DNA of 64,000 nucleotides. Source: Patescibacteria group bacterium (GTDB lineage Bacteria; Patescibacteriota; Patescibacteriia; 2-01-FULL-39-33). The notes beneath the pieces are model-generated. The model did not search any database. It had not been told where the DNA came from and saw only the letters and a list, made by a program, of their open reading frames with translations. The stretch spans positions 6,710 through 70,709 of the forward strand of contig JBAZQS010000003.1 of the NCBI GenBank assembly GCA_041645075.1. Reading direction: 5' to 3'. Positions within the stretch are counted from its first letter, which is position 1; each line of letters starts with the position of its first letter. Positions 7,091-63,418 of this stretch are shown here, piece by piece. A program made the translations under genes and the position numbers.

Positions 7091-7091
7091 A

Positions 7092-7976: not shown

Positions 7977-8030
7977 TGTCGTTTATTCGCAGTAGTTTAT
8001 TCGTAATTCGTAATTTGAAATTTTAAAATA

Positions 8031-36008: not shown

Positions 36009-37838
36009 CTACTTCACTGCCTTTTTTATGTCTTTAATTTCTTTGCCAATCAGCCCCTCCGAATCGTCTAAGTCCTTTTTGAGCTGCTGGAAAATCTTTT
36101 CTTCTTCTTTGGTCAGCGGTCTTTTATTTTGCGTTTTATTGAGTAATTTAATCTGATTCCGGATGTCTTTTTTCAATAAATCAAAGGCCCGATGCAAGGT
36201 CTGCTCGGCTTCTTGAACTTCTTTTCGCAGTCGGTTTCTAAAGAGGACAAATTTATGCCAGCCAAACCAAAGAATAAACAAAAGCAGGATAACTAAGGCC
36301 GCCAACGGCACCGCGACCGAAAGCAAGGCGACTGCCAGCGACCCTACCCGCAAGAAAGCCGGACGCTTGACCGCCATCGTCAGCTTTTCGGTGGGCAAAC
36401 TTTTGGCTTGCCGTTCATCCACCACCTCGGCCCAAAAATTATAAATGCCGTCTTTTAGCCGTTCATCAGCGATAAAAGTAAAATTTCCTTTTTCATCGGC
36501 TTTTACGCTCTGGCTTTTTAACTCCCCTTTTTCTCCTTGAAACCACATCGTTACTAATGAACGGAGATAGCGGCTGATTCCTTTTATCACTAAAATTTCG
36601 CCGCTGGCCAAGACCTTTGGATACTCGGTAATCACCGGCGTCTCCAAGGGCTTAATGGTAAATTCTGCGGTGGCGATTCGGTCATTTCCGGCTTTGTCAA
36701 ACGCCTTGACCACGATGGTGTGTCGGCCAGGCCCTGGCGGCGGCAGAGGGAAAATATGCGGCTGATTTGGTCTTTCTATCTTATCCTCGTAATTGGAAAC
36801 AAACCACTCGCCATTGTCAACTTTTACATCGCAATGTCCCGCTATCCCCGAAAGCGAATCTTCGTGGTCAACTATTATGGTGGGACGGGGATTGTCTGTT
36901 TCATTGCCATCAACAAATCTTATCTCAAACGGCTCGGGCGGCGTCGTGTCAATTTGAATTTTAAAATGAGTGATTGGTCCCCAGCCGGCAGAATTCCTCA
37001 TTTTTATATGGAAATACCAAACACCATCTTCAATGTTTTCATATGACTTGGCGGCAAATAGGCCATTGGAAACCGGGCCCGGGTTAGAGGTGGGGCTTTG
37101 GCTGAAATACACGCTCACCCCATTAACATTAGCCGGCAAAGCCCAGGAAAATTGCGGATTTTTATTACTATACCATTTATTGGACTCCGGGTGAGTGGCC
37201 GAGGATACTTGAGGCGCCGAAGGCGCGCCGGAAATTGGCGCCGGCGCGAGCTTCTCTTCCGTTACCTCGGGAACGGTTGGCACGGCGCCGCCCAAACTAA
37301 ACTGTGCGCTCCCCAAACTTGCCAAAATATTAGTGCCCTTGCCATCATTGGCGAGCGCCGAGCCCGAGGAAAAATTAAGCCGAGCGGTACCGGCTGTTTT
37401 CACTTTAAAATTTGCGGTAAGAACTTTACCGGCCGCCCCGCTAAATCCCGGATTAAGCACAATCCCTTCAAAATTAATTACGCCGGCGCTGTTGGAAAAT
37501 GACGGCTCCAAAACCCAGAGAGAAAAAATGGAGCCGGATTTTGAAAGAGAAGTAATTTCCAGTTTATCGCGCGGGAAAGAAATCACGCCCGAGGCCGCGT
37601 TCATGGCTTGGTCGGCGCTGGAAACATAGACATTGACGTTAAAAGTTTTTCCCACCGCATAGGAGCCGGAGGAGGGGGAAAAATACAGCGAGGCGGCTTG
37701 CGCTGTTGCGGGCAGAATGCCAAAAACAATAAACAGCAACGCGCTGCTAATTAGCAAGCATCTTACATTTTTAAATATTTCCTCCATAAAATTTTTATTG
37801 CGTAAGTAATAGCGAATCCTAATATAATTATAAGCCAA
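36009..37838 (-). CDS. Cohesin-like domain surface protein with C-terminal TM anchor and cytoplasmic coiled-coil tail (likely start at internal Met MEEIF, ~37787)
   Basis: Signal peptide, then SLYFSPSSGSYAVGKTFNVNVYVSS...VISFPRDKLEI...GIVLNPGFSGAAGKVLTANFKV (cohesin-type beta-sandwich pattern). TM VGSLAVALLSVAVPLAALVILLLFILWFGW. Confidence 0.5.
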   Translation of the reverse strand: MAYNYIRIRYYLRNKNFMEEIFKNVRCLLISSALLFIVFGILPATAQAASLYFSPSSGSYAVGKTFNVNVYVSSADQAMNAASGVISFPRDKLEITSLSKSGSIFSLWVLEPSFSNSAGVINFEGIVLNPGFSGAAGKVLTANFKVKTAGTARLNFSSGSALANDGKGTNILASLGSAQFSLGGAVPTVPEVTEEKLAPAPISGAPSAPQVSSATHPESNKWYSNKNPQFSWALPANVNGVSVYFSQSPTSNPGPVSNGLFAAKSYENIEDGVWYFHIKMRNSAGWGPITHFKIQIDTTPPEPFEIRFVDGNETDNPRPTIIVDHEDSLSGIAGHCDVKVDNGEWFVSNYEDKIERPNQPHIFPLPPPGPGRHTIVVKAFDKAGNDRIATAEFTIKPLETPVITEYPKVLASGEILVIKGISRYLRSLVTMWFQGEKGELKSQSVKADEKGNFTFIADERLKDGIYNFWAEVVDERQAKSLPTEKLTMAVKRPAFLRVGSLAVALLSVAVPLAALVILLLFILWFGWHKFVLFRNRLRKEVQEAEQTLHRAFDLLKKDIRNQIKLLNKTQNKRPLTKEEEKIFQQLKKDLDDSEGLIGKEIKDIKKAVK

Positions 37839-38656
37839 TTCTCATAGTTTTCATACCAACGAAGCGGATTCCGCGGTGAAATTTGTTCCACTCGTGTATT
37901 GCCGGCTTTATCAACCGCTTTCACAAAAATATAACTGCGCAATTCTTGATCTTGCAAAATATATGGGCTTTCTTTTTGAGACCACCTTTGAAATATATCA
38001 AAAAACTTCTGGCGGGATTCCCTTATCTCATAATGGTCAATACCCGAACCTTTATCTTGAGTAGCGAAAACAACAAACCACTTACCGCCAAAAGTCGACT
38101 CATCTTTGGCAATTTCCGGCATAAATGATTCTGGCGACTCGGTATCTTTTACTTTTGTAACTATGGGGGTTACAGCCAGAGCTTCCAAAGAGATCGTTAT
38201 CTCAAGCGGCGCTGTTGTTAAAGCCGCCGAAGATCCCATACCGTCATTTCGCAAAACTTTTGCGTCGCTAACTTCAAAATGGGCAATACCTTCCGATTTT
38301 GCTTCTAAGACAGCCGAAAAAAGCAGGCCGTTATTTCCTTGAAATCCGCCGGGCGTGATGCCAGAAAATGTAACGGTGTCATTTTGCGCCTTAGGTCTAT
38401 CAATCCAAAAATTTATAAGTGAATTCCCGTCTCGTATCTCTTTTACCCCAACAAGATTGCTTGGAAAAATAATTTTTCCTTCAAGCGCGTTAACGCTTTC
38501 TTCCGGAGTATTTATAAGAAGCTTAACCTCAAATTGCTCGCCAACTCCCACTCCGCTTGTTTTCGCTTCAAAGAAAAGATCAGCCGCAAAAACGAGTTGA
38601 GGCAAGATCAGTCCCAACAATAATACCAATAAAATTTTAGTTAGAAAATGTTTCAT
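37763..38656 (-). CDS. Cohesin-like domain surface protein with C-terminal TM anchor
   Basis: Signal peptide, then LFFEAKTSGVGVGEQFEVKLLINT...GKIIFPSNLVGVKEI...GLLFSAVLEAKSEG. C-terminal TM. Confidence 0.5.
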   Translation of the reverse strand: MKHFLTKILLVLLLGLILPQLVFAADLFFEAKTSGVGVGEQFEVKLLINTPEESVNALEGKIIFPSNLVGVKEIRDGNSLINFWIDRPKAQNDTVTFSGITPGGFQGNNGLLFSAVLEAKSEGIAHFEVSDAKVLRNDGMGSSAALTTAPLEITISLEALAVTPIVTKVKDTESPESFMPEIAKDESTFGGKWFVVFATQDKGSGIDHYEIRESRQKFFDIFQRWSQKESPYILQDQELRSYIFVKAVDKAGNTRVEQISPRNPLRWYENYENWLIIILGFAITYAIKILWRKYLKM

Positions 38657-38659
38657 AAA

Positions 38660-40792
38660 TTATCCTGTCCAATAAAATGCCATAATACTAAAATCCACTA
38701 AATCAACTTTGCCGTCGCCGTTAAGTCGTTCAATTTCAATCGGTTTGAATGTGGCGGAGAGCGGCCTTTTATACCAATACGCAGCAATGGAAAAATCAAT
38801 AAGATTCACCCGTTGGTCATTGTTTAAGTCGCCTTTTAAATATTTTGTTACTGGCGCAGCCGCGACATTTTTCGTGCCGACCTTAAAACCTATCATCCCG
38901 CTGAAACCGGATACGGCAATATTGCCGATAGAGGCCTTGGATTTTGCGTAGTAAGTGCCTAAAGCGACAAGACCGGAATCAAAATTATACAAATAGACGC
39001 CATTTTTGTCAGAAATTGTTTTGCCGAAAAACTCTTCTTCGGAATTTACCGAAACAACAATATCGGCCTGTGGCGCGCTTTGCCCAAAAATTGCGATATT
39101 GTCGCCGCGCTTAACTTCGCTTTTATCAACCGCAATGGTCGGGGCGATGAAAATTCCGCTGACATTGGTGGTGGCGCCGGCGGTAACACTCACGGGAAAA
39201 GTTAAAAGAGAAGAGCGGAGGCCTTTGCTATCCTCACCGTAAACGGCAAAAATATAATTACCGCCAGTTAAATTAGAAACGCTAATCTGAAAATTAGCAT
39301 CGGCGCCGGCGATTGTCGTTGCCGCCACTTGGGCGTCTTTGAGCAGAGTGACAGAACTTTTCGGATAAGCCCGGCCGCTAACATTGACTCTGGTTTCCAC
39401 GGCCGAACCTCCGCCCCCACCCCCCCCTCCTCCGGGAGGACTAACCGGCGGAGTAACAGTACCGGACTCTGCTGTAAATTGTTTCGTTGCTGCCGCCCAG
39501 TTAGTTTCAGCTAAAGCTCGCGCCTTAACTTTGAACCAATAAGTTCCCGCTGTTGGCACATTATTCAAAGTCAATGACAGGTTTATAAAGCTTCCGGCAT
39601 TTATGTATGCGGTAGCTGATCCGGAATCTACATCATCATTTCCACCACACAAATTACTTTCGCTGTTTACAATACAATAGACATAGTAGAAGTCGCTGTG
39701 TGAAGTTCCCTTGTTGTCAATTCTCACACTGGCGGTTATGGTCGGTATAACTTTATCTGTAATGTCAATTATTTGAACATCAGCCGGCGAGCTGGAAAGA
39801 TTCCAATAATCAGTTCGTTTAATCGTTTCCCCATTAACGACGACAGAAACGACTGTCTCCCAAACACCGCCGACGGCGCTACCGCCAATGCTATAGCTAT
39901 AACTGTAAGTTCCGTTTGAGTTCTTGGTCATAACGCCATTTGGCACTTGGACCGTTCCGGCAGAATCAGTAATAACCACTGTTGGCAGAGAATCAGCATC
40001 TGTTGGAATAGTCGCGTAATTTAGGACCTGCAATTTTGCTTTGTAAGCGGTGTTAACTGTGGTCTCTCCAAAGTCGGACAGTGTCACCGTCCAGCCGCTT
40101 TGAATTTTGGCAGCAAGAGTTGAAGTGGCAGTGTCAATATAAGATTGGGTGGCCAAGGAACCCGAATCAAGACCGGCACCAGTTAGAGTACGGCTAATCG
40201 ATGTCCAAACAGCTGAAGCCATGTCAGCCACTAAAGTACCAAACGAAGTGAGAGTTCGACCGCTAAATGACCAGATCGCAGAAGGAAGTGTGGCAAACAA
40301 ACTTGATGAAGCTGACGAAACAGCAGCGTTGATGTTGGCGCCAATGACCGCCGCCAGAGAAGATGTCGCTACTGTCAAACTTTCATCAACCACTCCTTTA
40401 ATTGTGCTAGTTGAGACCACTGACCAATCAACGATAAAACTTTTATCTACTATAACCAAGTCCCCCCTTGCTACCGCCCCACAAGTCATAACTGACGGCC
40501 AGACACCGGAAGGAGCATTCCCCGCCGTCGTATAATTATAGTAATGCCAGCCACTAGTACTTGCTGTCATTATTGTTGGTGGAACCTTCATCACATTAAG
40601 AGGGTCGGTTATTTCGATAGTGCAATCTGTCGTCGTCGCGACAAAATTATCATCAAAGACGAATTCGCCCAAGGTGACAGTATCGCCAGGGGCGATTTTT
40701 TGATAACTGGCATATACAAAATCAATCGCAAAAAAACTAAAAACTAAAAACAGCAAGATAAAACAGCTAAAAACTTTAAAAGAAAAATTCAT
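38660..40792 (-). CDS. Large secreted protein with C-terminal dockerin (type I-like duplicated Ca-binding repeats) and poly-Gly linker
   Basis: Signal peptide. ...GDLNNDQRVNLIDFSIAAY...LNGDGKVDLVDFSIMAF. PPGGGGGGGGGS linker. Confidence 0.6.
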   Translation of the reverse strand: MNFSFKVFSCFILLFLVFSFFAIDFVYASYQKIAPGDTVTLGEFVFDDNFVATTTDCTIEITDPLNVMKVPPTIMTASTSGWHYYNYTTAGNAPSGVWPSVMTCGAVARGDLVIVDKSFIVDWSVVSTSTIKGVVDESLTVATSSLAAVIGANINAAVSSASSSLFATLPSAIWSFSGRTLTSFGTLVADMASAVWTSISRTLTGAGLDSGSLATQSYIDTATSTLAAKIQSGWTVTLSDFGETTVNTAYKAKLQVLNYATIPTDADSLPTVVITDSAGTVQVPNGVMTKNSNGTYSYSYSIGGSAVGGVWETVVSVVVNGETIKRTDYWNLSSSPADVQIIDITDKVIPTITASVRIDNKGTSHSDFYYVYCIVNSESNLCGGNDDVDSGSATAYINAGSFINLSLTLNNVPTAGTYWFKVKARALAETNWAAATKQFTAESGTVTPPVSPPGGGGGGGGGSAVETRVNVSGRAYPKSSVTLLKDAQVAATTIAGADANFQISVSNLTGGNYIFAVYGEDSKGLRSSLLTFPVSVTAGATTNVSGIFIAPTIAVDKSEVKRGDNIAIFGQSAPQADIVVSVNSEEEFFGKTISDKNGVYLYNFDSGLVALGTYYAKSKASIGNIAVSGFSGMIGFKVGTKNVAAAPVTKYLKGDLNNDQRVNLIDFSIAAYWYKRPLSATFKPIEIERLNGDGKVDLVDFSIMAFYWTG

Positions 40793-40795
40793 AAA

Positions 40796-40827
40796 TTAGG
40801 GACTAGGGACTAGGTTGTAGGGACTAG
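40796..40827. repeat. Left arm of 32-bp inverted repeat (TTAGGGACTAGGGACTAGGTTGTAGGGACTAG) flanking the four-helix-bundle gene
   Basis: Pairs with 41228..41259. Confidence 0.7.
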
Positions 40828-40847
40828 AAACATTAGTAAATTAGCAA

Positions 40848-41216
40848 CTAGGGACTAGTATCATCTAGTTTTCTAGTCATTACATTTAACATTTTCATTA
40901 CTTCATTTAATAAATTATCTACTTCTTTAAAATTTATATTTTTGCCAAAATCCAATCTTTTCGCAATTTCTATTTGTGTTTCAAGTTCAGCTCCGGAACC
41001 AAAAGCGATTAATAAAAAATGTCTATAATCTTTTTTTGTTCCCCTTGTGTTTCCTTCTGATATATTGGAAGGGATAGAAACAGCGGCTCTTCTTATTTGT
41101 GATATTAATCCATATATTTCTGATTTTGGAAATAATTCTGTCAATTTATATATTGACACTACCAAATCCATTGATTTTTGCCAAACTATTAATTCTTTAA
41201 AATTTTTAACTTGCAT
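40848..41216 (-). CDS. Four-helix-bundle protein (23S rRNA intervening-sequence protein / bAvd-like family, TIGR02436)
   Basis: LIVWQKSMDLVVSIYKLTELFPKSEIYGLISQIRRAAVSIPSNISEG...FLLIAFGSGAELETQIEIAKRL. Confidence 0.75.
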   Translation of the reverse strand: MQVKNFKELIVWQKSMDLVVSIYKLTELFPKSEIYGLISQIRRAAVSIPSNISEGNTRGTKKDYRHFLLIAFGSGAELETQIEIAKRLDFGKNINFKEVDNLLNEVMKMLNVMTRKLDDTSP

Positions 41217-41227
41217 ATTTTTTAAAT

Positions 41228-41259
41228 CTAGTCCCTAGTCCCTACAACCTAGTCCCTAA
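41228..41259. repeat. Right arm of the inverted repeat (CTAGTCCCTAGTCCCTACAACCTAGTCCCTAA)
   Basis: Reverse complement of the left arm with internal block order swapped. Confidence 0.7.
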
Positions 41260-41380
41260 TTCATCTTTTTAACCATTTCCAGTTGTTAACAATTATACCA
41301 TATATATCATAACATTTACAGCTACCTGCACTGCAAAAAGATTTTTAAGTATGGTATAATAAAATTGAGAAAATAAAAAT

Positions 41381-41767
41381 ATGTTTTTACCAAATTCACA
41401 TTCTTTTTTGTTGGTAAAATCGGCCATTGCCAAGCCGGTTATTCAATCTGGTACTCAAGAATCTGCAATAATTTTGCCATCATCCTCACCATCAGATTAT
41501 AGGAGGAATTTGTTTTTACCAAATTCACATTCTTTTTTGTTGGTAAGATCGGCCATTGCCAAGCCGGTTATTCAATCTGGTACTCAAGAATCTGCAATAA
41601 TTTTGCCGTCATCCTCATCATCAGATTATAGGAGGAATTTGTTTTTACCAAATTCACATTCTTTTTTGTTGGTAAGATCGGCCATTGCCAAGCCGGTTAT
41701 TCAATCTGGTACTCAAGAATCTGCAATAATTTTGCCGTCATCTTTCTCGTCAGATTCCGGTAAGCCG
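41381..41767 (+). repeat. 3 x 129-bp tandem repeat, each unit carrying TGgTAAAAT extended -10-like motif and AGGAGG + TTG/ATG
   Basis: Units start at 41381 (ATG), 41510 (TTG) and 41639 (TTG). They are near-identical and the third diverges at its 3' end. Confidence 0.75.
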
Positions 41768-42376
41768 ACAATCGGCGATAAAAACAAAAGAACTTTTTTG
41801 AAAGTGGCTGGCATTGCAGGCGCCGGTCTTGTCGGTTCACTGCTTTTGCCTAAAAAGGCCTCGGCCTTGATAATGGGCAGTTCACCCACAACAGGAGTGG
41901 TCGGTGTCAAAAATTCAACCAACGCGAGAATCAACCCCGCTACAGAAGAAACGGTTAATTCACTACTTAAACCTTCAGATTTAAGTTTTGATACCGGATC
42001 TTTGAAAGTTAAGGTAACCTCTGTCTCTGGCGACGGCTCTAGTAGTTTTAGTAATTCGGGAGGCGTGGCCAAAAGCGGTCTGGTAGATGTTGACCGACAT
42101 GTTCAGGTGGACGTATTAACTTCGGGGTTACCATCATCGGCTTCAACAGAAACCACTCTGCAGACTATTTCTTTTGGTGGTTTTAAATTTACTCTTCGCC
42201 TGGCAACGGTTGGTGACATTGATTACGTGGGGGAAGCGTCAATTGGGACAGCCACTTCTGCCGCGTCATGGCGTATAAAAAAGATTGACAGTACTACTGG
42301 TATAATTATCCAATGGGCCGGTACGGGAGTTTTTGACCAAATATGGGATAATCGCGCTTCTTTAAGCTATAGTTAA
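41381..42376 (+). CDS. Small secreted protein with Tat-like signal (NKRTFLKVAGIAGAGLVGSLLLPKKASA); the N-terminal 130 aa are encoded by the tandem repeats (true start may be a downstream TTG)
   Basis: KR-variant twin-arginine motif followed by h-region and ASA cleavage site. Mature part Ser/Thr/Gly-rich. Confidence 0.5.
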   Translation: MFLPNSHSFLLVKSAIAKPVIQSGTQESAIILPSSSPSDYRRNLFLPNSHSFLLVRSAIAKPVIQSGTQESAIILPSSSSSDYRRNLFLPNSHSFLLVRSAIAKPVIQSGTQESAIILPSSFSSDSGKPTIGDKNKRTFLKVAGIAGAGLVGSLLLPKKASALIMGSSPTTGVVGVKNSTNARINPATEETVNSLLKPSDLSFDTGSLKVKVTSVSGDGSSSFSNSGGVAKSGLVDVDRHVQVDVLTSGLPSSASTETTLQTISFGGFKFTLRLATVGDIDYVGEASIGTATSAASWRIKKIDSTTGIIIQWAGTGVFDQIWDNRASLSYS

Positions 42377-42528
42377 ATCAAAATGGAAAAATCAAAATGG
42401 AAAATGATAATTAAATCAAAATTAAAAAATCAAATATCAAAATGATAGTACAAAACGATAGTGCAAAGTTTAAATAGGTAGAGGAAATGTAAATGCCATT
42501 TTGATTTTTGATATTTGATTTTTACATT
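42377..42528. repeat. Palindromic element A (ATCAAAATGGAAAAATCAAAATGGAAAAT ... CCATTTTGATTTTTGATATTTGATTTT), copy 1
   Basis: Starts right after the stop at 42376. A second copy is at 48419..48511. Confidence 0.65.
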
Positions 42529-42572
42529 AGCTAAGGTTATCCACAACACATGGCAATATATAATAATAGCAG

Positions 42573-42857
42573 ATGGTGTATAATAATAGCAGATGGTGTA
42601 TAATATATAGAGTAAGATTAATTAAAATGTTTAACAATATGGAAAAAGTAGTAAAATGCAGGGGATGTGGGCAATATTTTATGCACACAGAAAAAGCTAT
42701 AAAATGTCCATTTTGTCATACTGAATATGGTGAAGTTGAGGAAAAAGTTGAGGAAAAAAAAGGGACTGCAAAAACTCAAGTTGAGGAAAAAGCTAAGGAT
42801 AAAAAAGGGGTTGCAAAAACTCGAAAAGGATTTTTCAAAATTCGGAAAGATAATTAA
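42573..42857 (+). CDS. Hypothetical zinc-ribbon protein with Lys/Glu-rich tail (start probably at internal Met)
   Basis: CRGCGQYF...CPFCHTEYG. Preceded by 2.5 tandem copies of taataatagcagatggtgta, each with a TATAAT box. Confidence 0.35.
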   Translation: MVYNNSRWCIIYRVRLIKMFNNMEKVVKCRGCGQYFMHTEKAIKCPFCHTEYGEVEEKVEEKKGTAKTQVEEKAKDKKGVAKTRKGFFKIRKDN

Positions 42858-42890
42858 AAAAAGAAGTTATTATTATTAATAATATAAAAT

Positions 42891-45512
42891 ATGGCAGCAG
42901 TAGTAACAACAGATTATAGTATCGCAACAAACGGAGACATCCGTTATACCGGTACGACAACCAATAACACCGTTATTGAATTCCACCGTTGGCTCGGCGA
43001 TTTGATGGACGACGCCCTCGCTACAGGCAACGACCTCTTGGATATCACGGACGCGACCGCTTCAGAGCGTTCAACCGACAACATTATCACGCTAAAAGCG
43101 CCTTTTAACATTGACAATACGGTTGCGCAACATCTTTTTGATGGTTCCATTATTCAAACTAACGGCGATGAGATTTATGATGGTATCTTAGTATTCGCAG
43201 CAGCGGGTACTCCACTCCAAATTCTTCAGAATGGAAAACCTGCATACCCCAATTTTTGGGGTACAAGTATAAACGCTGATTCGGCAAACGGTATCTCGCA
43301 TCGCTTTATGTTGAAAGTAAAAACTGCCGCAGCTGATATTGATGGACGACGTTTGGTTGGACAAACAAGAGAGACGGGCAAAACCTACAGCGAATTTAAG
43401 ATTAACGGTACAGCCAGAGGTAACAACGTTCTCGCCCTTACCTATGCTACTGACTTGAACAACGCCACAGCAGAAGCGACTATTCGCGGGTGGACTACGA
43501 TTACAAATACAGAAGGCTACCGACTCTTGGATGTGGACAATAACAGCCTCACGGAGAACTACTATTCGGAATGGAATCGCGCTGCGCTTACAATCAACCA
43601 ATTCTTTGAAAGACATAAGTGGCTTACTCGTGAATCAACAGTAGAATCTTCAAATGCTAATTCCGGCGCGAGTAATTTCCAAGTAGCAAACGCGACTATT
43701 ATCGGGCAGAGCCAATCATTCGCCAATGGTGTAAACGCTCAATACCTTACTCGTGTGCGAGTAAAGATGAGGAAGGTCGAGGGGACTCCTGGCACTGTCA
43801 CTGGAAACCTTACCGCGAAACTCTACAATCATAGTGGGGCGACTTTCGGTACCGATTCTATCCCTGGAGTTACGCTTCACGCAACATCAGAGAATTTTGA
43901 TGTGGCGACTCTCACCACGGCGTATAAAGAATATGAAATTGCGTTCGGTACAGCAGGAGCCACAGCGCATTTTTTAATGGTGGCTTCTACAAATTATTGT
44001 ATTGCGTTTGAACATGCCGCTATTAACGGTTCAAACTATGTAGAGATACAAGGAGATGGGACTGCTGGCAACCACCCGGGTAACCGCGCCCAATTAGTAG
44101 CTTCGACCTGGACACCGACCGCGGCTGATAACCTTGACTTCAAAGTATACGCGTCTCCTAAGCAGTATGGCATTCGTGGTGAAATATTCCGCGGTATCAC
44201 CCATGAAGTTGTTGCAGATACTCCTTCAGCCGCATTCTCCGCGGTTGAAGCAATTTCATGGCCTGGCGGCACAGGACAATTGCTTGCAAGTGTCTTCCCA
44301 GACACAACCGCGACAGCTCTAAGCGTGAACGCGAGCCTCCAATTCGCCCGGGCTACTGGTAGCTTCATCACCGACGGCTTCCGGCCGGGCATGACGATCG
44401 TTTCGACCGTCTTCACCACTGGCGCGAACAACACGACCAAGATTATCTCGTCTCTCACCGCGACCACGATTACCGTGACGGACACGACCGGCCTCGTCCA
44501 AGAAGCGGCGGGCACGGATGAGCGAATTCGTGCTGGGCATATCTGGATGCAACTTCTGACTGGTATAGCACCAACAGATAATCAGACCATCACTGGCGGG
44601 ACTTCATCTACGACGGCCTTGATGAATGTCACCATTACAGAACGCACGCTTTCACAGCCAGCTGTGGGTGCTTCAACCGGTACGGCAATCATCGGATCGT
44701 ATGGACTTGGTGTTGAACCCATCCCAGACCTTAGTGCTTCCGATAAGGTAACTGACTTGAGTAATACTCTTCGTGTTCCTCCGAATAATGTTACATTCAC
44801 AGTTGCTGGGCTCGTATCTGGTGAAGATAGGGTGCTTGTTGCTCCTCTCGGGTATGAGTTTGCCTATGACACCGAAGCCGTCGCCAACTTCGCTCTCGGA
44901 GACTCTCTTACCTTCGGCACTCCGACAGGCACAGGGTATCTCTCACTGCTTCGTGATGACGGCACGACAGGGCGTATGCAGATACGACTTCTTTCCGGCT
45001 CCGTTCCTACTGATAACTCAACCATTACAAATGGTACCGCGACCGCACTAGTAAACGGCTCAGTAGTAGCGAGCGAAGACCCGCGACAGCTTATCTTGAC
45101 TGCAGTAGCACTAAGTGGTGGTGCAGTGACCACCGTACCCTGCACCACAGCTATCCCTACCGATACTCCTTCAGCGGCAGGAACTACTGGTTCTATTCGA
45201 ATACGGCTCGCAAGTGGTTTATTTCGTAATATTGCTTACACCTCATATTCGGGTAACGACTTTACCATTCCAAGCACGGACTTCTCAGCAGATAACGCCC
45301 CTGCAAGCACCAGCATCTTCATCGCCTATATTGATAAAGCTATTACTGGTGGGGCTACTACGGCAACATTCACCGGCGTGTATTCGGCAGACAGAAATTT
45401 GTTTGTGCGTGTCCGCGATGGAGCGTCTACACCGATTAAGACCTTTGAAACCACAGGTACGCTCGGCTCTGCAGGTGGTTCAGCTACCGCCATCAGAACG
45501 AGTGACGCATAA
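42891..45512 (+). CDS. Large (873 aa) Thr/Gly/Ala-rich protein without signal peptide; phage tail-fibre/receptor-binding-protein-like
   Basis: No SP/TM. Repetitive T/G/N-rich beta-type sequence. Codon composition is GC-elevated relative to the genome. First gene of the cassette bounded by the palindromic elements. Confidence 0.4.
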   Translation: MAAVVTTDYSIATNGDIRYTGTTTNNTVIEFHRWLGDLMDDALATGNDLLDITDATASERSTDNIITLKAPFNIDNTVAQHLFDGSIIQTNGDEIYDGILVFAAAGTPLQILQNGKPAYPNFWGTSINADSANGISHRFMLKVKTAAADIDGRRLVGQTRETGKTYSEFKINGTARGNNVLALTYATDLNNATAEATIRGWTTITNTEGYRLLDVDNNSLTENYYSEWNRAALTINQFFERHKWLTRESTVESSNANSGASNFQVANATIIGQSQSFANGVNAQYLTRVRVKMRKVEGTPGTVTGNLTAKLYNHSGATFGTDSIPGVTLHATSENFDVATLTTAYKEYEIAFGTAGATAHFLMVASTNYCIAFEHAAINGSNYVEIQGDGTAGNHPGNRAQLVASTWTPTAADNLDFKVYASPKQYGIRGEIFRGITHEVVADTPSAAFSAVEAISWPGGTGQLLASVFPDTTATALSVNASLQFARATGSFITDGFRPGMTIVSTVFTTGANNTTKIISSLTATTITVTDTTGLVQEAAGTDERIRAGHIWMQLLTGIAPTDNQTITGGTSSTTALMNVTITERTLSQPAVGASTGTAIIGSYGLGVEPIPDLSASDKVTDLSNTLRVPPNNVTFTVAGLVSGEDRVLVAPLGYEFAYDTEAVANFALGDSLTFGTPTGTGYLSLLRDDGTTGRMQIRLLSGSVPTDNSTITNGTATALVNGSVVASEDPRQLILTAVALSGGAVTTVPCTTAIPTDTPSAAGTTGSIRIRLASGLFRNIAYTSYSGNDFTIPSTDFSADNAPASTSIFIAYIDKAITGGATTATFTGVYSADRNLFVRVRDGASTPIKTFETTGTLGSAGGSATAIRTSDA

Positions 45513-45671
45513 TCCCCGTGGCATATAGCAAAATAATGAAAACCCCCGAGCTTACGCTCGGGGTGTCCAAATATAATTAGAATGCAATTGAAACTGTCGC
45601 GCTTGTTGAAATTGACAGCGTAAAAACCGTAATTATTAAAGGGGTTGAATAAGAATTATTGAATAAAAATT

Positions 45672-47492
45672 ATGGCAGTACCAGTATATACCATCCCCGA
45701 ACTCACCACGATGAATACGGGTGAGGCGACTACCAACTGGGCAGAGCCCGGAACGTGGCTGGGCGGAGGTCTACCTGTGGCTGAAACGGATTACTTCATT
45801 CAAGGAACGGGCTGTATCGATAAAACATTCAACGCCGTCGCTATCGGTGGCTTGATGTATAGCGCCGGGGCTCAAACAATTGCAAGCCCAAATGCCTACT
45901 TTGCGTGGGTGTGGTTCGGGTGTCCCAATGCCATTGATACATTAGCCAATGGCGGAATTCGATTGATGGTTGGGGACCTGAATACCGTCTTCAAAGCATG
46001 GTATGTCTTAGGTAGCAATACATATCAATATGGCGGATGGCGCTGTATTCCCGTTGATCCCAACACTACTGCGGACGCAACCATTGGTACACCCTCCGGT
46101 GTGTGGGCGTTTTTTGGGATGGCCGCAAGTGTCTTGAATGCCGTAGCCAAAGGTAACCCCTGCGCTATCGATGTCATTCGACACGGAAGAGGGACGCTTC
46201 AATCCGTAAGCGGTGAGGCAGCAAACTACGCCACCTTTGCAGGTGCGGCAGCACAAGACCAAAATGTAACCAACCGTTGGGGATTATGCCAGCTTATTGA
46301 TGGTACGGTTATCCAGCAAGGCCACTTCCTCATGGGCGTGGCCGCAACTGCTGTAGATTTCCGAGACAGTAATCGTGCAATTGTCATTGCCAACACCACG
46401 AAGGTTACCTCGACATTCAACCTGTTTGAGATTCGTAATGCCACTAGCCGAGTCGATTGGACTAGTATTTCGTTTACTGCGCTTGGCACGGTATCAAGGG
46501 GGGACTTCACAGTCACCGACAACGCTACCATCAATTGGATTGGTTGCACCTTTACCGATGTTGGATTGTTCGTTCTACAGGCGGCAACTATCGTTACGAG
46601 TTGCGTGTTCAGACGCACCGATAGAATCACATTGGCTGGCGCAACGCTCACAAGTTGTACGATTGATAATAATCGGGCCACAACGGCGGTTCTCGCGGCC
46701 ACCCCAGCAGGTGCTCAATTAGTTTCTGGCTGCACGTTCACCAGCGATGGCACGGGGCATGGGCTTGAGATCACCGGCGCGGCCGTCCCCGACATGACGC
46801 TGACAAATTGCACATGGACTAACTATACAGCAGCCAGTGGTGGCAATGAAGCAGTTTACGTGAACATCGCATCTGGCACTATGAACTTGAACATCAGTGG
46901 TGGCACCACTCCATCAGTACGAACAGCGGGGTGTAACGTAACGGTTGTCTCGGGTGCGGTAAATGTGACCATAAATGTAAAAAACTCAGCAGGAACTAAT
47001 ATTGAAAATGCACGAGTCTTTGTTAAGGCTTCGGATAATATAGGGCCATTCCCCTTTGAGGAAACTGTAACAATTAGTAACTCAGGAACTACCGCCACAG
47101 TGACACATACGGCCCATGGAATGACTACTAATGATAAGGTGGTTATTTCTGGAGCGACGTCTCCGACCTTTGATGCTAACAATGGGATATTCTCTATTAC
47201 CTATGTTTCGGATAACAGCTACACTTACGCCATGTTATCAGCACCGGGAGATGGCGCCGTGCCGGGAACTATTATAAGTACCTTTGTTGCAATAAGTGGA
47301 ACGACTAATGCAAGTGGTAATATATCAATGAGTAGGGTGTTCTTAACAAATCAGAATATCATTGGTTGGGTAAGAAAAACCTCAACTCCACCAACTTACA
47401 CTCCACCAAATTACAAAACCGGGCCGATTGGGGGTACAGTCAATTCAACTACGGGATTCACTGCCAACGTACAATTAATTTCAGACGACTAA
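45672..47492 (+). CDS. 606-aa protein with right-handed parallel beta-helix repeats (tailspike/pectate-lyase-like), no signal peptide
   Basis: Periodic CTFTDVG / CTIDNN / CTFTSDGTGHG / CTWTNYT coils, and Asn/Thr ladders. Confidence 0.45.
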   Translation: MAVPVYTIPELTTMNTGEATTNWAEPGTWLGGGLPVAETDYFIQGTGCIDKTFNAVAIGGLMYSAGAQTIASPNAYFAWVWFGCPNAIDTLANGGIRLMVGDLNTVFKAWYVLGSNTYQYGGWRCIPVDPNTTADATIGTPSGVWAFFGMAASVLNAVAKGNPCAIDVIRHGRGTLQSVSGEAANYATFAGAAAQDQNVTNRWGLCQLIDGTVIQQGHFLMGVAATAVDFRDSNRAIVIANTTKVTSTFNLFEIRNATSRVDWTSISFTALGTVSRGDFTVTDNATINWIGCTFTDVGLFVLQAATIVTSCVFRRTDRITLAGATLTSCTIDNNRATTAVLAATPAGAQLVSGCTFTSDGTGHGLEITGAAVPDMTLTNCTWTNYTAASGGNEAVYVNIASGTMNLNISGGTTPSVRTAGCNVTVVSGAVNVTINVKNSAGTNIENARVFVKASDNIGPFPFEETVTISNSGTTATVTHTAHGMTTNDKVVISGATSPTFDANNGIFSITYVSDNSYTYAMLSAPGDGAVPGTIISTFVAISGTTNASGNISMSRVFLTNQNIIGWVRKTSTPPTYTPPNYKTGPIGGTVNSTTGFTANVQLISDD

Positions 47493-47510
47493 TCAATTAG
47501 AAAAAATAAT

Positions 47511-47756
47511 ATGGATGAAGTAACAGCCAAAGAAGAAGCCAAGGAAATAGCCATCGCGCAACTAAATAAAAGGAATACCGAGACCGTGGAGGTTGTTTTG
47601 CGCGTCATGCAGAAAGAAATAACCGAGTTGAAGATTGTCGTCGCCAGCTTGAATAATACCATGGGGGGATTAATTGAACGGCAGAATCAGTTGGAGCAGA
47701 AAATAAACATTCAGAAGGTCCAGCTCATGGGATTAGGCCCAAGTGTCAAAGAATAA
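47511..47756 (+). CDS. Small coiled-coil protein (81 aa)
   Basis: Heptad-like EITELKIVVASLNNTMGGLIERQNQLEQKI. No TM. Confidence 0.35.
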   Translation: MDEVTAKEEAKEIAIAQLNKRNTETVEVVLRVMQKEITELKIVVASLNNTMGGLIERQNQLEQKINIQKVQLMGLGPSVKE

Positions 47757-47865
47757 TCTGATATGCCCAAAAGGCTTGAAAAGCCAAAAAGGCCAAAAAT
47801 GTCCAACCCTTCTCTAGTTTTTTAAGCATTTCCGGCCTTTTAGGCCTTTTGAGCTTTTCATTCAT

Positions 47866-48417
47866 ATGGCAATTTCAATAAACTGGCCAACCGGAGTGAT
47901 AACCGTACCAAAGGTGGATATGACGCTTGTTCAATCTACTCCTATTGAAATTAGAGAGTTAAACATCAATACCTTCCGCCTTAGATTAAAGGACTTGGAA
48001 GATGATGCAGAGGGTCAAGTTTGGGCGACAACCCACAATCACAATACGACAGTTTCAGTTGGAGGAGTTACACTTGCGCGAGTAGTTGAAATTATTAATG
48101 GATATACGGTGACTTTTGAGAATGGTACGTATGCTGTAAACCTCGTAGGCGCAAATTCAAATATTGGGGATGTTCTAAATCTTAATACTGTATCTATCAG
48201 GGCTGCAAATTCAGCAGGGCTTATCCAGGCGATGATATGGGATGAGCCAATTGCAGGCCATCTTACAACAGGAACAACCGGCAAAGCTCTATCTGATGCA
48301 GGCGGCGCGGGTAATCCGTGGTCAAGCACTATAACTGGCAATACTACTGCCGGGACATTTGGTGAATTAGTTGGCAAGAAGCTTTTGACTATAGCTAAAT
48401 TTTTGGGACTTAAATAA
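47866..48417 (+). CDS. Hypothetical protein (183 aa), beta-rich, no signal peptide
   Basis: ORF with cassette-like composition. No motif recognised. Confidence 0.4.
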   Translation: MAISINWPTGVITVPKVDMTLVQSTPIEIRELNINTFRLRLKDLEDDAEGQVWATTHNHNTTVSVGGVTLARVVEIINGYTVTFENGTYAVNLVGANSNIGDVLNLNTVSIRAANSAGLIQAMIWDEPIAGHLTTGTTGKALSDAGGAGNPWSSTITGNTTAGTFGELVGKKLLTIAKFLGLK

Positions 48418-48418
48418 A

Positions 48419-48511
48419 TCAAAATGGAAAAATCAAAATGGAAAATTTAGGGCTCAATACTTTTAATTTTACATTTTAAATTGTTATTTTGATTTTTGAT
48501 TTTTGATTTTT
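48419..48511. repeat. Palindromic element A, copy 2
   Basis: ATCAAAATGGAAAAATCAAAATGGAAAAT ... TTTTGATTTTTGATTTTTGATTTT, right after the stop at 48417. Confidence 0.65.
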
Positions 48512-48524
48512 TAATTAGCTATAT

Positions 48525-49646
48525 ATGACAATAAATGATCTTATCCAGCTGCTTAATAATAGGTTGAGAGAATTTCAACTCTCCAGAGATTACGCCAGGA
48601 TGAGCGGCGATTTGGAAAGAATGAATGTTGCCGATAAAGAAATTCTTTCTTTAGAGGATACTTTGTATAAATTGAATTTATTGGTGGACACCTCCAAGTC
48701 CGCCGCTATTAGAGAGGTCATTCTGGCGGAAGTTATAACCGATGGTTCAGTCGCGGTTTTGGGAGAATACGATATCACTCTTTATGCTACCGACCCTTTG
48801 CACGAAAAAAAAATAATGAATATCTTGAGCAAAATGGGAGTGATGGAGACAGTGGAAAAAATTGATGCTTATATCAAGGGCAAATATTTGAGCAGTCCGG
48901 TTACCGGAGAGATGGTAATGAGCGCTGCTTCTGCTTATAGCGTAGACGCCCGGTTGATGATGGCTATAATGGAACAGGACTCGAGCTTTGCTACTGCCGG
49001 CAAAGCGGTAAGGACTCTAAATCCAGGCAATGTCGGTAATGATGACAGCGGTAATCTTCGCACATACGACTCGTGGCAAGAGGGCGTGACAGCAGTGGCG
49101 GCATGGCTTAGCAGACACCGTGGATTAACAACCATTTCCGAAATTCCTGAAGAAAATGTTCTTGAACCTACGGCCACTTCCCAGCCAGAGGCTGGTCCGC
49201 CTTTGGCGGAAACGACCTTAACAACCACTACAACCACTGCCACTGCCACCACCACACCAGCGGCCGCCACTTCAACTCCGGAAACCATACCGGTCATCAC
49301 TTCTACTACTACCACTGCCACCACCACACCAGCGGTAGCCACCTCAACTCCGGAAACCATACCGGTCATCACTTCAACCACTACCACCGCCACCACCACG
49401 CCGTTTACGACCACCTCCACTCCGGAAACCACACCGGTCATCACTTCCCAGCCAGAGGCTGGTCCGCCTTTGGCGGAAACGACTTCAACGACCACTACGA
49501 CCACCACCGCTACGACTACACCTCCCACCGCCCCAGAAGAGCCCGCACCGGCGACCGCCACTTCAACTCCGGAAACCATACCGGTCATCACTTCTACCAC
49601 TACCACGGCTACCACAACTACATCGACCGCCACTGCGACAGAATAG
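48525..49646 (+). CDS. Peptidoglycan hydrolase (glucosaminidase/FlgJ-like domain) with C-terminal Thr-rich tandem repeats
   Basis: ASAYSVDARLMMAIMEQDSSFA...NPGNVG...LRTYDSWQEGVTAVAAWL resembles the mannosyl-glycoprotein endo-beta-N-acetylglucosaminidase domain. 4 x ~35-aa TTTTATTTPAxATSTPETIPVITS repeats. Confidence 0.5.
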   Translation: MTINDLIQLLNNRLREFQLSRDYARMSGDLERMNVADKEILSLEDTLYKLNLLVDTSKSAAIREVILAEVITDGSVAVLGEYDITLYATDPLHEKKIMNILSKMGVMETVEKIDAYIKGKYLSSPVTGEMVMSAASAYSVDARLMMAIMEQDSSFATAGKAVRTLNPGNVGNDDSGNLRTYDSWQEGVTAVAAWLSRHRGLTTISEIPEENVLEPTATSQPEAGPPLAETTLTTTTTTATATTTPAAATSTPETIPVITSTTTTATTTPAVATSTPETIPVITSTTTTATTTPFTTTSTPETTPVITSQPEAGPPLAETTSTTTTTTTATTTPPTAPEEPAPATATSTPETIPVITSTTTTATTTTSTATATE

Positions 49647-49675: not shown

Positions 49676-50398
49676 TTGGAAAATTTTAAAAAAAATATAG
49701 AAAAATTTCTTCCATTTTTGGAAGATCTGCGTGAACGATTGTATCGCGGGGTAATTTTATTCGTCGTATTCTTTTTGGTCGGCTTTCTCTCTTCTGGAAT
49801 AATTCTAAAAAAAATATTAAAACTTGTTCATATCGATCAGGTGGTAATCGCCACTTCTTCACCATTTCAGTTTACCGAGATAGCGATGGATGTTGGGTTT
49901 TTCCTCGCGATTATGGTTTCTGTTCCGTACATAATTTATAGCTTTTATGTCTTCATTATACCCGCATTAACTAGAAGCGAGAAAATAAAACTTTTAAAAT
50001 CTATTCCTTTAAGCGTTGGATTATTCATTGTTGGATCTTTTTATGGGTTTTTTATTCTTTACTATGCTTTAGGATTATTAGCTTCTGTCAACATCAGTTT
50101 AGGGATCGCCAATTTTTGGAATATCGGTCAATTTTTAACAGAAATGCTTATTACCTCCGCTTTGTTGGGATTGGTCTTTGAGCTTCCTCTCCTCTTGTCT
50201 CTGCTTATAAAACTGGGGATAACTACACCCCAAACCCTCAAAAACAATAGGCGCGTCGCTTATTTTTTAACCATTTTTCTGACCGCTTTACTTCCGCCAA
50301 CCGATGGTGTATCATTAATAGCGATGGCACTGCCACTTGTGCTACTATACGAGGGGACGATATTATTAAATAATAAAAAAACAATATGTTTGGATTAG
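49676..50398 (+). CDS. tatC: Sec-independent translocase TatC
   Basis: 6 TM. FxxxxFxxGxxFxYF-like segments SFYGFFILYYALG... Confidence 0.8.
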   Translation: MENFKKNIEKFLPFLEDLRERLYRGVILFVVFFLVGFLSSGIILKKILKLVHIDQVVIATSSPFQFTEIAMDVGFFLAIMVSVPYIIYSFYVFIIPALTRSEKIKLLKSIPLSVGLFIVGSFYGFFILYYALGLLASVNISLGIANFWNIGQFLTEMLITSALLGLVFELPLLLSLLIKLGITTPQTLKNNRRVAYFLTIFLTALLPPTDGVSLIAMALPLVLLYEGTILLNNKKTICLD

Positions 50399-50550
50399 GA
50401 CCTAGAGAACTAATTATTTTGGCCGTTATCCTCGTTTTGCTTTTTGGCGCAAAGAAGATTCCAGAACTTGCTCGCGGTATTGGGGAGGCTGTCAGACACA
50501 TCAGAAACGGTTTTTCTGATGACAAAGACAAAACAGATAAAAAAAGTTAA
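50386..50550 (+). CDS. tatA: TatA/E copy 1 (54 aa)
   Basis: MFGLGPRELIILAVILVLLFGAKKIPELARGIGEAVRHIRNGFSDDKDKTDKKS. Not in the ORF track (<60 aa). Overlaps the tatC stop. Confidence 0.75.
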   Translation: MFGLGPRELIILAVILVLLFGAKKIPELARGIGEAVRHIRNGFSDDKDKTDKKS

Positions 50551-50652
50551 ATAGCGTAACCACTGTTGTCATCTTTACCTCCACTAACCGATGGTGTATT
50601 ATTAATTAAAAAGGTTGATCTTATTAAATAATTAAATAATAAAAAATATTAT

Positions 50653-50817
50653 ATGTTTGGATTAGGACCTACAGAAATAATTATTTTTGTCGCTATCATC
50701 GTTTTGCTTTTTGGTTCAAAAAAGATCGCGGATCTTGCTCGCAGTGTCGCGGAGGCTGTTAAAATCCTCCGGGGTAGTTTTTCAGACGAAAAAGACAAAA
50801 CAGACAAAAAAAATTAA
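50653..50817 (+). CDS. tatA: TatA/E copy 2 (54 aa)
   Basis: MFGLGPTEIIIFVAIIVLLFGSKKIADLARSVAEAVKILRGSFSDEKDKTDKKN. Part of a ~260-bp tandem duplication unit that includes a tatC 3'-end fragment. Confidence 0.75.
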   Translation: MFGLGPTEIIIFVAIIVLLFGSKKIADLARSVAEAVKILRGSFSDEKDKTDKKN

Positions 50818-50909
50818 ATCGCGTAACCACTGTTGACCTCCACTAACTGATGGTGTATTTTTAATTAAAAAGGTCGATATTATTAAATAATTAAATAATA
50901 AAAAATATT

Positions 50910-51083
50910 ATGTTTGGATTAGGACCTAGGGAACTAATTATTGTGGTCGGTATCCTCGTTTTGCTTTTTGGTTCAAAAAAGATCGCGGATCTTGCTCGCA
51001 GTGTCGCGGAGGCTGTTAAAATCCTCCGGGGTAGTTTTTCAGACGAAAAAGACAAAAAAGACAAAACAGATAAAATTGCGTAA
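50910..51083 (+). CDS. tatA: TatA/E copy 3 (57 aa)
   Basis: MFGLGPRELIIVVGILVLLFGSKKIADLARSVAEAVKILRGSFSDEKDKKDKTDKIA. Confidence 0.75.
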   Translation: MFGLGPRELIIVVGILVLLFGSKKIADLARSVAEAVKILRGSFSDEKDKKDKTDKIA

Positions 51084-51101
51084 TCATTTGTTAGCCGAAA
51101 T

Positions 51102-53286: not shown

Positions 53287-53300
53287 TATAAAATAAAAAA

Positions 53301-53330
53301 ACGCCCCGACGTCACGTCGGGGCGTTTTTT
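53301..53330. terminator. Bidirectional rho-independent terminator (A-run, gccccgacgtcacgtcggggc, T-run)
   Basis: Member of the CCCCGACGTnACGTCGGGG hairpin family. Flanked by A7 and T9. Confidence 0.7.
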
Positions 53331-58941: not shown

Positions 58942-58978
58942 CAGCCCCGCCCCGACATTACGTCGGGGCGGGGCTGGA
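58942..58978. terminator. Hairpin ccagccccgccccgacattacgtcggggcggggctgg (CCCCGAC family)
   Basis: Read directly. Follows the stop at 58922. Confidence 0.6.

Positions 58979-58997: not shown

Positions 58998-63417
<4,420 letters not shown>

Positions 63418-63418
<1 letters not shown>

Follow-up and report, generated by a model that had tools for sequence, protein, structure and literature searches.

A domesticated, Tat-linked phage fibre module at a fixed chromosomal locus of Paceibacteria, with a plausible role in cell-surface recognition

The 64,000-nucleotide (nt) window analysed here, from contig JBAZQS010000003.1 of a Patescibacteria group bacterium (GenBank assembly GCA_041645075.1), carries at positions 42377-48511 a cassette of five plus-strand open reading frames (ORFs) encoding proteins of 94, 873, 606, 81 and 183 amino acids (aa), set beside genes of the twin-arginine translocation (Tat) system. 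We are confident that this cassette is a domesticated phage fibre module that is under selection, is linked to Tat and is accompanied by no other phage genes found at the locus. Judged from the gene order of its relatives, the module is a fixed chromosomal locus in a clade of Paceibacteria that takes in Zambryskibacteria, Yanofskybacteria and others. When a predicted function in the recognition of cell surfaces is joined to this, we lean modestly towards accepting the statement as a whole.

The two largest proteins of the cassette display the phage connection at the level of the fold. The AlphaFold2 model of the 606-aa protein, built with 57 homologues (mean predicted local distance difference test score, pLDDT, 92.7), has an N-terminal beta-sandwich, a right-handed, three-faced parallel beta-helix (residues ~200-430) and C-terminal beta domains (430-606). 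The model of the 873-aa protein (pLDDT 87.6) has a highly conserved alpha/beta N-terminal domain (1-250) followed by a chain of beta-sandwich domains, including jelly-roll domains that structure comparison relates to carbohydrate-binding modules (CBMs); its best structural matches are a baseplate protein of phi812, the Bxb1 tail spike and the GP4 tail fibre, and in BFVD it matches uncharacterised or tail proteins from uncultured phages. Both models are of monomers. They yield the beta-helix that the original prediction had read from the letters of the 606-aa protein and, for the pair, folds of the tailspike kind that it had expected. A phage homologue of the 873-aa protein follows genes for the large terminase subunit (TerL), a portal protein and a Gp80-like protein (locus L003), and we considered the protein as an HK97 capsid; its model has no HK97 fold.

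At the sequence level, neither Pfam, PHROGs nor NCBIfam holds a family for the 873-, 606- and 183-aa proteins, and a search of PDB sequences returned a marginal endosialidase match for the 606 family and nothing for the 183-aa protein or for the 373-aa protein encoded just downstream. The 183-aa protein is probably a second short fibre or an adaptor, and the 81-aa protein, for which Pfam gives weak matches only, may be a factor of fibre assembly or an adaptor. All five ORFs lie where they had been predicted, with one correction: the 94-aa ORF probably begins at the ATG at 42627, because its homologues align from residue 19 only and its annotated 5' end contains a promoter-like duplication. An N-terminal hydrophobic segment was found in none of the 94-, 873-, 606-, 81-, 183- and 373-aa proteins, in keeping with the earlier claim that the cassette proteins have no signal peptide; such segments are present in the flanking 710-, 297-, 609- and 212-aa proteins.

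Homologues of the 873-, 606-, 81- and 183-aa genes form a module of the same order in hundreds of uncultivated phage contigs. In a 167-kb contig (L003), the order is terminase (TerL), a 326-aa protein, portal, a 342-aa protein, a Gp80-type fibre and then the four genes, whose products are 70% (over the first 248 residues of the 873-aa protein), 51%, 41% and 48% identical to the 873-, 606-, 81- and 183-aa proteins. The same four-gene order recurs in a 215-kb contig (L002), in L010, in three huge-phage-like contigs of 188-422 kb and in a prophage of a complete Thermodesulfobacteriota chromosome. In L003 and L018 the 606-like genes have terminase, portal and tail genes around them, whereas the copy in the window and its orthologues lie among cellular genes. 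A scan of IMG/VR recovered 313 viral stretches; in the loci fetched from it, a 606-like gene follows downstream in order in 48 of 79 and a 183-like gene in 57, while TatC, TatA and the 373-, 94- and 710-like genes occur in none of the 79. Because the GC content of the viral loci spans 0.27-0.69, the module circulates in phages of many hosts. The families are correspondingly large, with more than 965 clusters for the 606-aa and more than 2394 for the 873-aa protein. Among GenBank phages, tblastn gave no match to the 873- or the 183-aa protein and a single one to the 606-aa protein, gp179 of Virus Rctr197k at 27% identity. Identity to the phage versions is 67-76% in the N-terminal domain of the 873-aa protein, whose other parts differ; residues ~249-425 and 467-549 are extra relative to phage versions of 546 aa. 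The 94-aa family was found in cellular loci only, where its place relative to the 873 gene differs from one relative to another.

On the cellular side, the remaining genes of the window are those of a bacterial chromosome (MnmA, SecDF, FtsW, MacB, sigma-70, DnaK, DnaJ and GyrB among them). The same locus is found in a Zambryskibacteria genome (L004-6/L011) and a close relative (L009); in metagenome-assembled genomes (MAGs) labelled Parcubacteria, Wolfebacteria and 'Saccharibacteria' (L014, L017, L020, L022, L025); in a 265-kb contig that also encodes FtsH, RecG and malic enzyme (L188); and in about 25 metagenome contigs recovered with the 331-aa protein, encoded directly upstream of the cassette, as the query, the sampling of relatives being pattern-limited. 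The common order is a minus-strand group of 609-, 297- and 710-like genes, followed by 331, (94), 873, 606, (81), 183, 373, TatC, two or three TatA genes and a 212-like gene. The window has TatC, and so do all relative loci that reach past the 373-aa homologue (~11 distinct contigs). A Shapirobacteria contig (L016) holds a rearranged set in a cellular neighbourhood, with a 331-like gene, two 606-like genes, 873-, 183- and 710-like genes, and a TatC of 31% identity. Since the linkage survives such rearrangement and deep divergence, it argues for a functional tie among the genes of the locus.

A lone 606-like gene also occurs amid housekeeping genes on a 139-kb cellular contig (L007, 9788-11815). 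No Tat genes are nearby, and immediately upstream lies a 50-aa fragment that matches the C-terminal end of the 873-aa protein; the locus may exist here in reduced form.

Profile scans with Pfam and PHROG covered the cassette, its flanks and the largest of the other window ORFs, though not every ORF, and found no terminase, portal, capsid, integrase or tail gene among them. Likewise, no sheath, tube or baseplate gene was found in these ORFs, nor is any listed for the Pfam-annotated genes of L004-6 and L188; for the remaining relatives the comparison was with the window proteins only. Since the ORFs tested yielded none of the genes that define either, we take the locus to be neither a prophage, as had been predicted, nor a tailocin, so that the earlier suggestion of a tailocin-like remnant is unlikely.

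The fibre genes of this locus show dN/dS (the ratio of non-synonymous to synonymous substitution rates) of 0.05-0.2 overall, with 0.05-0.13 for the 81 gene, 0.11-0.15 for the 183 gene and 0.10 for the 873 gene, the last a rough value because dS exceeds 1 in the 873 comparisons. The large ORFs are uninterrupted in all the relatives examined, even at a length of 2925 aa. Between loci, the flanking proteins are 66-91% identical, the 873-like proteins 33-83%, the 606-like 26-58% and the 183-like 46-92%, in locus-specific combinations. The variation is greatest in the 606 slot, which in relatives holds proteins of ~980 and 945-1156 aa and up to 2925 aa (L025 1685-10459, 2925 aa; L030 12671-15595, 975 aa; L071 15063-17897, 945 aa; L023 7037-10504, 1156 aa) that have only the C-terminal ~175 residues in common. 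It is thus the C-terminal end that is conserved in this slot, whereas tailspikes usually show the opposite pattern.

In a neighbour-joining tree of the 873 N-terminal domain, which carries no support values, the cellular sequences are polyphyletic, falling into four or more clades among which phage and prophage alleles are interspersed; the 873-like N-terminal domain of a 63.5%-GC contig (L010) nests within the clade of the window. Relative to L069, L071 and L079, the 606 gene alone has been replaced, with the DNA breakpoints at its two ends. Whole genes have been exchanged, with the joins at gene boundaries, and the outer limits of the entire segment are the two hairpins discussed below.

Base composition does not point to a recent foreign origin. 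GC content at 43-47 kb rises to 0.46-0.53, against 0.426 +/- 0.032 elsewhere (z up to 3.4), and to this extent the predicted difference from the genome is real. The excess lies at second codon positions (GC2 0.52-0.53 against 0.36 +/- 0.07 in other genes), whereas GC at third positions (GC3, 0.45-0.47) is that of the host (genome mean 0.452), so the raised GC reflects the type of protein encoded, rich in Thr (~15%), Ala (11-12%) and Gly (9-10%). A compositionally foreign, recently acquired island is ruled out by this GC3 and by the presence of the same locus and gene order in dozens of related genomes.

The Tat link runs through the 331-aa protein. Its gene contains three 129-nt tandem repeats (41378-41764; 97% and 90% identical), which encode 43-aa FLPNSHSFLL repeats ahead of a Tat-like signal; relatives have one to three FLPNxxSFLL copies, so that the N-terminal extension is conserved and its copy number varies. 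The twin-arginine-type signal, DKNKRTFLKVAGIAGAGLVGSLLLPKKASA (residues ~133-162), combines a [KR]R-x-F-L-K motif, a hydrophobic stretch and an A-x-A site. The motif is conserved across all the aligned cellular homologues, where it takes the forms SRRNFLK, SRRQFLK (as in the Shapirobacteria contig), DRRKFIK and, in this genome among others, KR forms. TIGR01409 (TAT_signal_seq) scores the window protein at 16.2 bits in full and 17.1 bits when trimmed (cut-off 16.7), and matches the 331-like proteins of four of six relatives (best E 8e-5); no other window ORF carries a Tat-like motif. The last ~60 residues have their match at the C-terminal end of a phage protein whose gene stands immediately upstream of the 873-like gene in L002 and several IMG/VR loci. 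These phage counterparts are collagen-like (Gly-X-Y) or repeat-rich fibres without the RR motif, and the signal is a gain peculiar to the cellular version.

The functional unit accordingly exceeds the cassette itself, the 331-aa, 373-aa, TatC and TatA genes being its conserved partners. The original prediction had set the cassette beside a peptidoglycan hydrolase and an amplified Tat system. TatC and three TatA genes are indeed there (PF02416 identifies the TatA homologues of L005, and relatives have two or three copies); the hydrolase assignment is weaker, the match of the 373-aa protein to PF01832 being below threshold. That protein is 72-91% identical among relatives, always lies between the fibre genes and TatC, and has a dN/dS of 0.10-0.16. 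Its C-terminal third (49175-49633) consists of Thr/Pro-rich repeats with a 72-nt period, which give rise to a long spurious antisense ORF. TatA and TatC are known from Paceibacteria, Microgenomatia and Saccharimonadia (PMC9166423).

Table 1. Features of the locus and its flanks; positions are those of the 64-kb window.
Feature	Position	Strand	Basis or remarks
Three surface proteins, secreted and divergently transcribed: 609 aa (cohesin, Big_13), 297 aa, 710 aa (MG2, Big_6, dockerin)	36009..40792	-	Conserved left flank, all relatives
331-aa protein	41381..42376	+	Three 43-aa FLPNSHSFLL repeats, twin-arginine-type signal, C-terminal domain shared with phages
Left hairpin element	42374..42522	+	32-nt arm same as right copy, T-rich 3' arm; terminator-like for the 331-aa gene
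Candidate promoter/operator region of the fibre operon	42531..42626	+	Conserved block
94-aa ORF, small zinc-ribbon protein with Lys/Glu-rich tail	42573..42857	+	Probable start ATG 42627 (76 aa)
873-aa fibre or baseplate-like protein	42891..45512	+	Structure model, phage homologues
606-aa tailspike-like protein	45672..47492	+	Structure model
81-aa helical protein	47511..47756	+	65-76-aa partner at the same position in phage loci
Intergenic hairpin of AAAAGGCC-type units	47761..47867	+	Class of intergenic hairpins with tandem-unit arms
183-aa protein, last gene of phage-type module	47866..48417	+	Conserved N-terminal 120-aa domain, variable C-terminus
Right hairpin element	48415..48517	+	32-nt arm same as left copy
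373-aa protein	48525..49646	+	N-terminal helical part, weak glucosaminidase/lysozyme-like match (130-197), Thr/Pro-rich repeat tail
TatC	49676..50398	+	PF00902, E 5e-39
Three TatA paralogues (54, 54, 57 aa)	50386-50550, 50653-50817, 50910-51083	+	187-nt repeat units (50376-51086)

The borders of the cassette are marked by two hairpin elements. The 29-nt sequence ATCAAAATGGAAAAATCAAAATGGAAAAT occurs exactly twice in the window, at 42377-42405 and 48418-48446, where shuffled sequences lead one to expect none, and each copy begins one base past a stop codon, that of the 331-aa ORF on the left and that of the 183-aa ORF on the right; counting the TAA of the stop, the identity extends to 32 nt (42374-42405 and 48415-48446). 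Each arm has an imperfect, T-rich inverted partner (42496-42521 and 48486-48517), the 3' arms being nearly alike and the loops different, and the predicted RNA folds reach -25.1 kcal/mol for the left element (42374-42522; z -3.7) and -19.7 kcal/mol for the right (48415-48515; z -3.5). DNA homology to the Zambryskibacteria relative L004 ends at 42385, inside the left hairpin, and restarts at 48523, just past the right one, which makes the two elements the borders of the variable segment. An identical motif with an imperfect inverted partner, placed one base after the stop codons and bracketing the cassette, was thus correctly recognised in the original prediction. Rfam was also searched for non-coding RNA in the hairpins and gave only a tRNA-Glu in the window.

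We consider it likely that these elements are mainly intrinsic terminators, whose short identical arms may also supply junction homology for exchange of the cassette. They start at a stop codon and end in a T-rich arm; their stems are AT-rich and their loops long, and they fail a scan for the GC-rich consensus. That they instead mark a mobile cassette at both ends, as att-like or integron-like sites, would account for the direct repeat of 32 nt identical at both ends, for the breaks in L004 homology at exactly these points and for L017, where both cassette junctions share a 14-mer of the same hairpin family. L017 is, however, the sole relative in which paired flanking repeats were found, and most relatives have the cassette without such a pair; members of the family lie 3' of the 331-like gene in L050 and L017 (with a remnant in L040/L011), 3' of the 183-like gene in L017, and at an internal junction between the 94-like and 606-like genes in L004-6. 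Profile scans of window ORFs found no integrase, transposase or recombinase in or beside the cassette, the boundary motif has no exact match among the 2.9 million viral contigs of IMG/VR, and further AT-rich intergenic hairpins with short tandem-unit arms lie at 47761-47867, 20192-20316 and 59854-59945. With the T-rich 3' arm suiting an intrinsic terminator, we regard mobile-cassette ends as an unlikely explanation.

Between the left hairpin and the 873 gene lies a candidate promoter or operator of the fibre operon, in which a perfect DnaA-box sequence, TTATCCACA (42537-42545), is followed by -35/-10-like hexamers. The block GGCGAGGTTATCCACACCACAAAACT..GAC.ACGAA..N..TATACT is also conserved in the corresponding intergenic region in 10 or more relatives (including L030, L040, L045, L050, L069, L079, L082, L088 and L014), and TATCCACA has only two occurrences in the window. 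An inverted copy, TGTGGATA, stands upstream of the 373-aa homologue in L050, L069, L071 and L097. A 23-nt tandem duplication (two copies of ATAATAATAGCAGATGGTGTATA, 42556-42601) doubles the -10-like region within the 5' end annotated for the 94-aa ORF.

Set against known systems, the locus comes closest to other phage tail genes that bacteria have domesticated, and differs from them in keeping fibre genes alone and in its tie to Tat. In organisation and predicted fold, it is like the branched receptor-binding modules of phages with several receptor-binding proteins (RBPs), for instance G7C (gp63.1/gp66), CBA120 and phiKp24, with which it shares tandem receptor-binding genes, conserved N-terminal docking domains, exchangeable distal parts and whole-gene swaps. 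Unlike these, it offers no particle for docking, and its candidate base, the 331-aa protein, has a Tat signal in place of a virion-binding part. The right-handed beta-helix of the 606-aa protein is that of the phage tailspikes and depolymerases (P22 gp9, CBA120 TSP1-4, HK620, the depolymerases of Klebsiella and Acinetobacter phages and phi29 gp12); the differences, as seen in a monomer model, are that the protein belongs by sequence to no family in Pfam, PHROGs or NCBIfam, that its gene is on the chromosome and no virion genes were found close to it, and that its C-terminal 175 aa is shared more widely than any other part. Tailocins (R- and F-type pyocins) and contractile injection systems are likewise domesticated phage tail genes whose fibres set the target range, but their sheath, tube and baseplate have no counterpart in the window ORFs scanned or among the genes listed for the Pfam-annotated relatives.

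Two further parallels concern the route to the surface. PblA and PblB of the Streptococcus mitis phage SM1 are phage tail-fibre proteins that are displayed on the bacterial surface as adhesins. These signal-less adhesins depend on a neighbouring lysin, and a hydrolase-like gene adjoins the fibre genes here too; PblA and PblB are, however, encoded by a complete prophage and freed by holin and lysin, whereas here there is no prophage and the linked genes are those of export, TatC and TatA. The Tat system, for its part, exports folded complexes in which a partner hitchhikes on a signal-bearing subunit, as with the E. coli hydrogenase-2 HybOC and DmsAB. The locus is like these in having one subunit with a twin-arginine signal beside signal-less partners and tat genes; it differs in that the cargo of the proposed co-export would be far larger and no cofactor enzyme, and in that the signal is internal.

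Taken together, a hypervariable phage receptor-binding module put to use at the cell surface is the reading that we favour, with somewhat better than even confidence. The products of the locus would build a surface fibre or spike assembly that binds the surface glycans of another cell, most plausibly a host, and the beta-helix would perhaps cut the glycans of the bound cell. The 331-aa protein would be exported, or anchored by its signal, via the adjacent Tat system, and the signal-less fibre proteins would either hitchhike with it or leave after local opening of the wall by the putative 373-aa hydrolase. Of the possibilities raised by the original prediction, an adhesin or fibre module or an episymbiont contact structure thus stands as the best functional guess, now with a phage source, and recent acquisition as a foreign island falls away.

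Several observations weigh against this reading. The function is drawn from genomic context alone, and neither the fibre proteins nor the 373-aa hydrolase has a signal peptide, the latter matching PF01832 with an E-value of 9e-4, under the gathering score. The twin-arginine motif is internal, at residue ~136 here and ~60-100 in relatives, an unusual place for a cleavable Tat signal; in the window protein it reads KR, not RR, and its profile score sits at the family threshold. Trimers of the 606- and 873-aa proteins would be bigger than any well-documented Tat cargo that we know of, and their probable size makes hitchhiker export doubtful. A specific docking of the 331- and 873-aa proteins is disfavoured by the deep variation of 873 N-terminal alleles alongside a conserved 331 C-terminal domain. 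The rough dN/dS of the 873 gene and the unsupported tree of its N-terminal domain count on the same side. Finally, the taxonomic breadth of the locus is uncertain because some MAG names (Saccharibacteria, Gammaproteobacteria, Pseudomonadales) conflict with a TatC identity of 70-84%; these names probably reflect mis-binning.

In one alternative the fibres are adhesins, bacteriocins or particle components released by lysis: either the 373-aa hydrolase opens some of the cells and the freed fibres attach again to cell surfaces or to targets, as with PblA and PblB, or the fibres decorate a tail-like or capsid-like particle encoded elsewhere in the genome. The want of signal peptides in both the fibre proteins and the hydrolase, and the constant adjacency of the hydrolase gene, are as this would have them, but neither sheath, tube, baseplate nor capsid, nor a holin, was found in the window ORFs scanned or is listed in the Pfam-annotated relatives, and TatC and TatA are true members of their families and not holins; we judge lysis release unlikely. 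The interleaving of rapidly turning-over cellular alleles with those of phages resembles an arms race, and, together with an N-terminal domain so close to the phage versions while the other parts differ, it would suit an anti-phage decoy, in which host-made fibres enter phage progeny and spoil their recognition or mask the cell's own receptors. Such a decoy leaves unexplained the Tat signal of the 331-aa protein, the unvarying linkage to TatC and TatA, the wall hydrolase and the secreted dockerin and cohesin proteins; the GC range of the related phages means that most of them cannot infect this 43%-GC bacterium; and PADLOC, which returned nothing relevant to any known defence system, gave no match to known defence families. 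We hold it to be quite unlikely.

A third alternative takes the enzymatic resemblances at face value: the 606-aa protein, whose strongest structural matches include the AlgG epimerase, alginate and pectate lyases and glycoside hydrolases, and the 873-aa protein with its CBM-like domains would belong to a secreted complex of polysaccharide lyases or hydrolases, serving feeding or the remodelling of the cell's own envelope and not cell recognition, and the cohesin and dockerin domains of the neighbouring proteins recall assemblies of the cellulosome type. The locus, however, keeps the full gene arrangement seen in phage receptor-binding modules, together with their anchor-type N-terminal domains, and its gene-by-gene allele replacement is typical of recognition proteins and not of metabolic enzymes, so that we give this exoenzyme complex only a slight chance. 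Least of all survives a decaying prophage remnant, an old tail-fibre end left near Tat by chance and without function: four core genes with same-order phage homologues and a lysin-like gene after the fibres, as in phage late regions, would fit it, but it is largely refuted by the intact large ORFs, the low dN/dS and host-like GC3, the persistence of the same locus even where TatC identity is 31%, and the Tat signal gained by the cellular 331-aa protein.

Some features of the surroundings are recorded separately. Just left of the 331-aa gene is a 122-aa gene of the 23S-rRNA-intervening-sequence type, predicted to encode a four-helix bundle (40848-41216, minus strand; GC3 0.17) and flanked by 38-nt inverted repeats of GGGACTA units (40791-41264). 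It looks like a small genome-specific insertion because it is absent from this position in L004 and L009. Its weak bAvd-likeness raised the idea of a diversity-generating retroelement, which we rejected: the 23S_rRNA_IVP match is far stronger (E 3e-39), the ORFs scanned include no reverse transcriptase, no template/variable repeat pair was found, and the gene is missing there in L004 and L009.

Elsewhere in the window, about 10 GC-rich intergenic palindromes of the CCCCGCCCCGACGTTACGTCGGGGCGGGG type, within 3605-63644 (e.g., 58945-58973, 63616-63644, 26869-26897 and 53299-53327), make up a second, unrelated family of terminator- or REP-like hairpins. Inverted repeats with GAGATGGTTACAAAACTAT, resembling miniature inverted-repeat transposable elements, lie at 6897-7095, 8845-9035, 18481-18507 and 63418-63593, one pair of them (88-91 nt, 92-95% complementary) flanking two genes at 7092-8585. 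The GyrB gene (60017-63418) is interrupted by an intein (Intein_splicing, residues 469-889), and a TrwB/TraG-like type IV coupling protein with a C-terminal treble-clef zinc finger is encoded at 9024-10715 among housekeeping genes.

To our knowledge, the hosts of most Patescibacteria, notably of the Paceibacteria/Parcubacteria, are not known, nor is the way in which these bacteria attach. Against this background, the locus is a concrete and testable candidate for a host-recognition device, combining a fixed position and variable content with purifying selection and ties to export, hydrolase and dockerin-cohesin genes. A full-text literature search found no description of it, which is weak evidence of absence, and the comparison also reveals a very large family of phage proteins that has gone without annotation. 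If the favoured reading is true, the route of domestication would be an unusual one, in which fibre genes alone, without a tail, were retained and a Tat signal was added to one fibre protein. A more specific proposal, which we put forward tentatively and think rather doubtful as it stands, is that episymbionts of the Paceibacteria type capture RBPs from the phages of their hosts and display them through the Tat-linked locus so as to find, bind and locally digest the host surface. Were this so, the allele at the hypervariable site would encode the host range of the symbiont, and that range would be predictable from the nearest phage relatives, such as L010.

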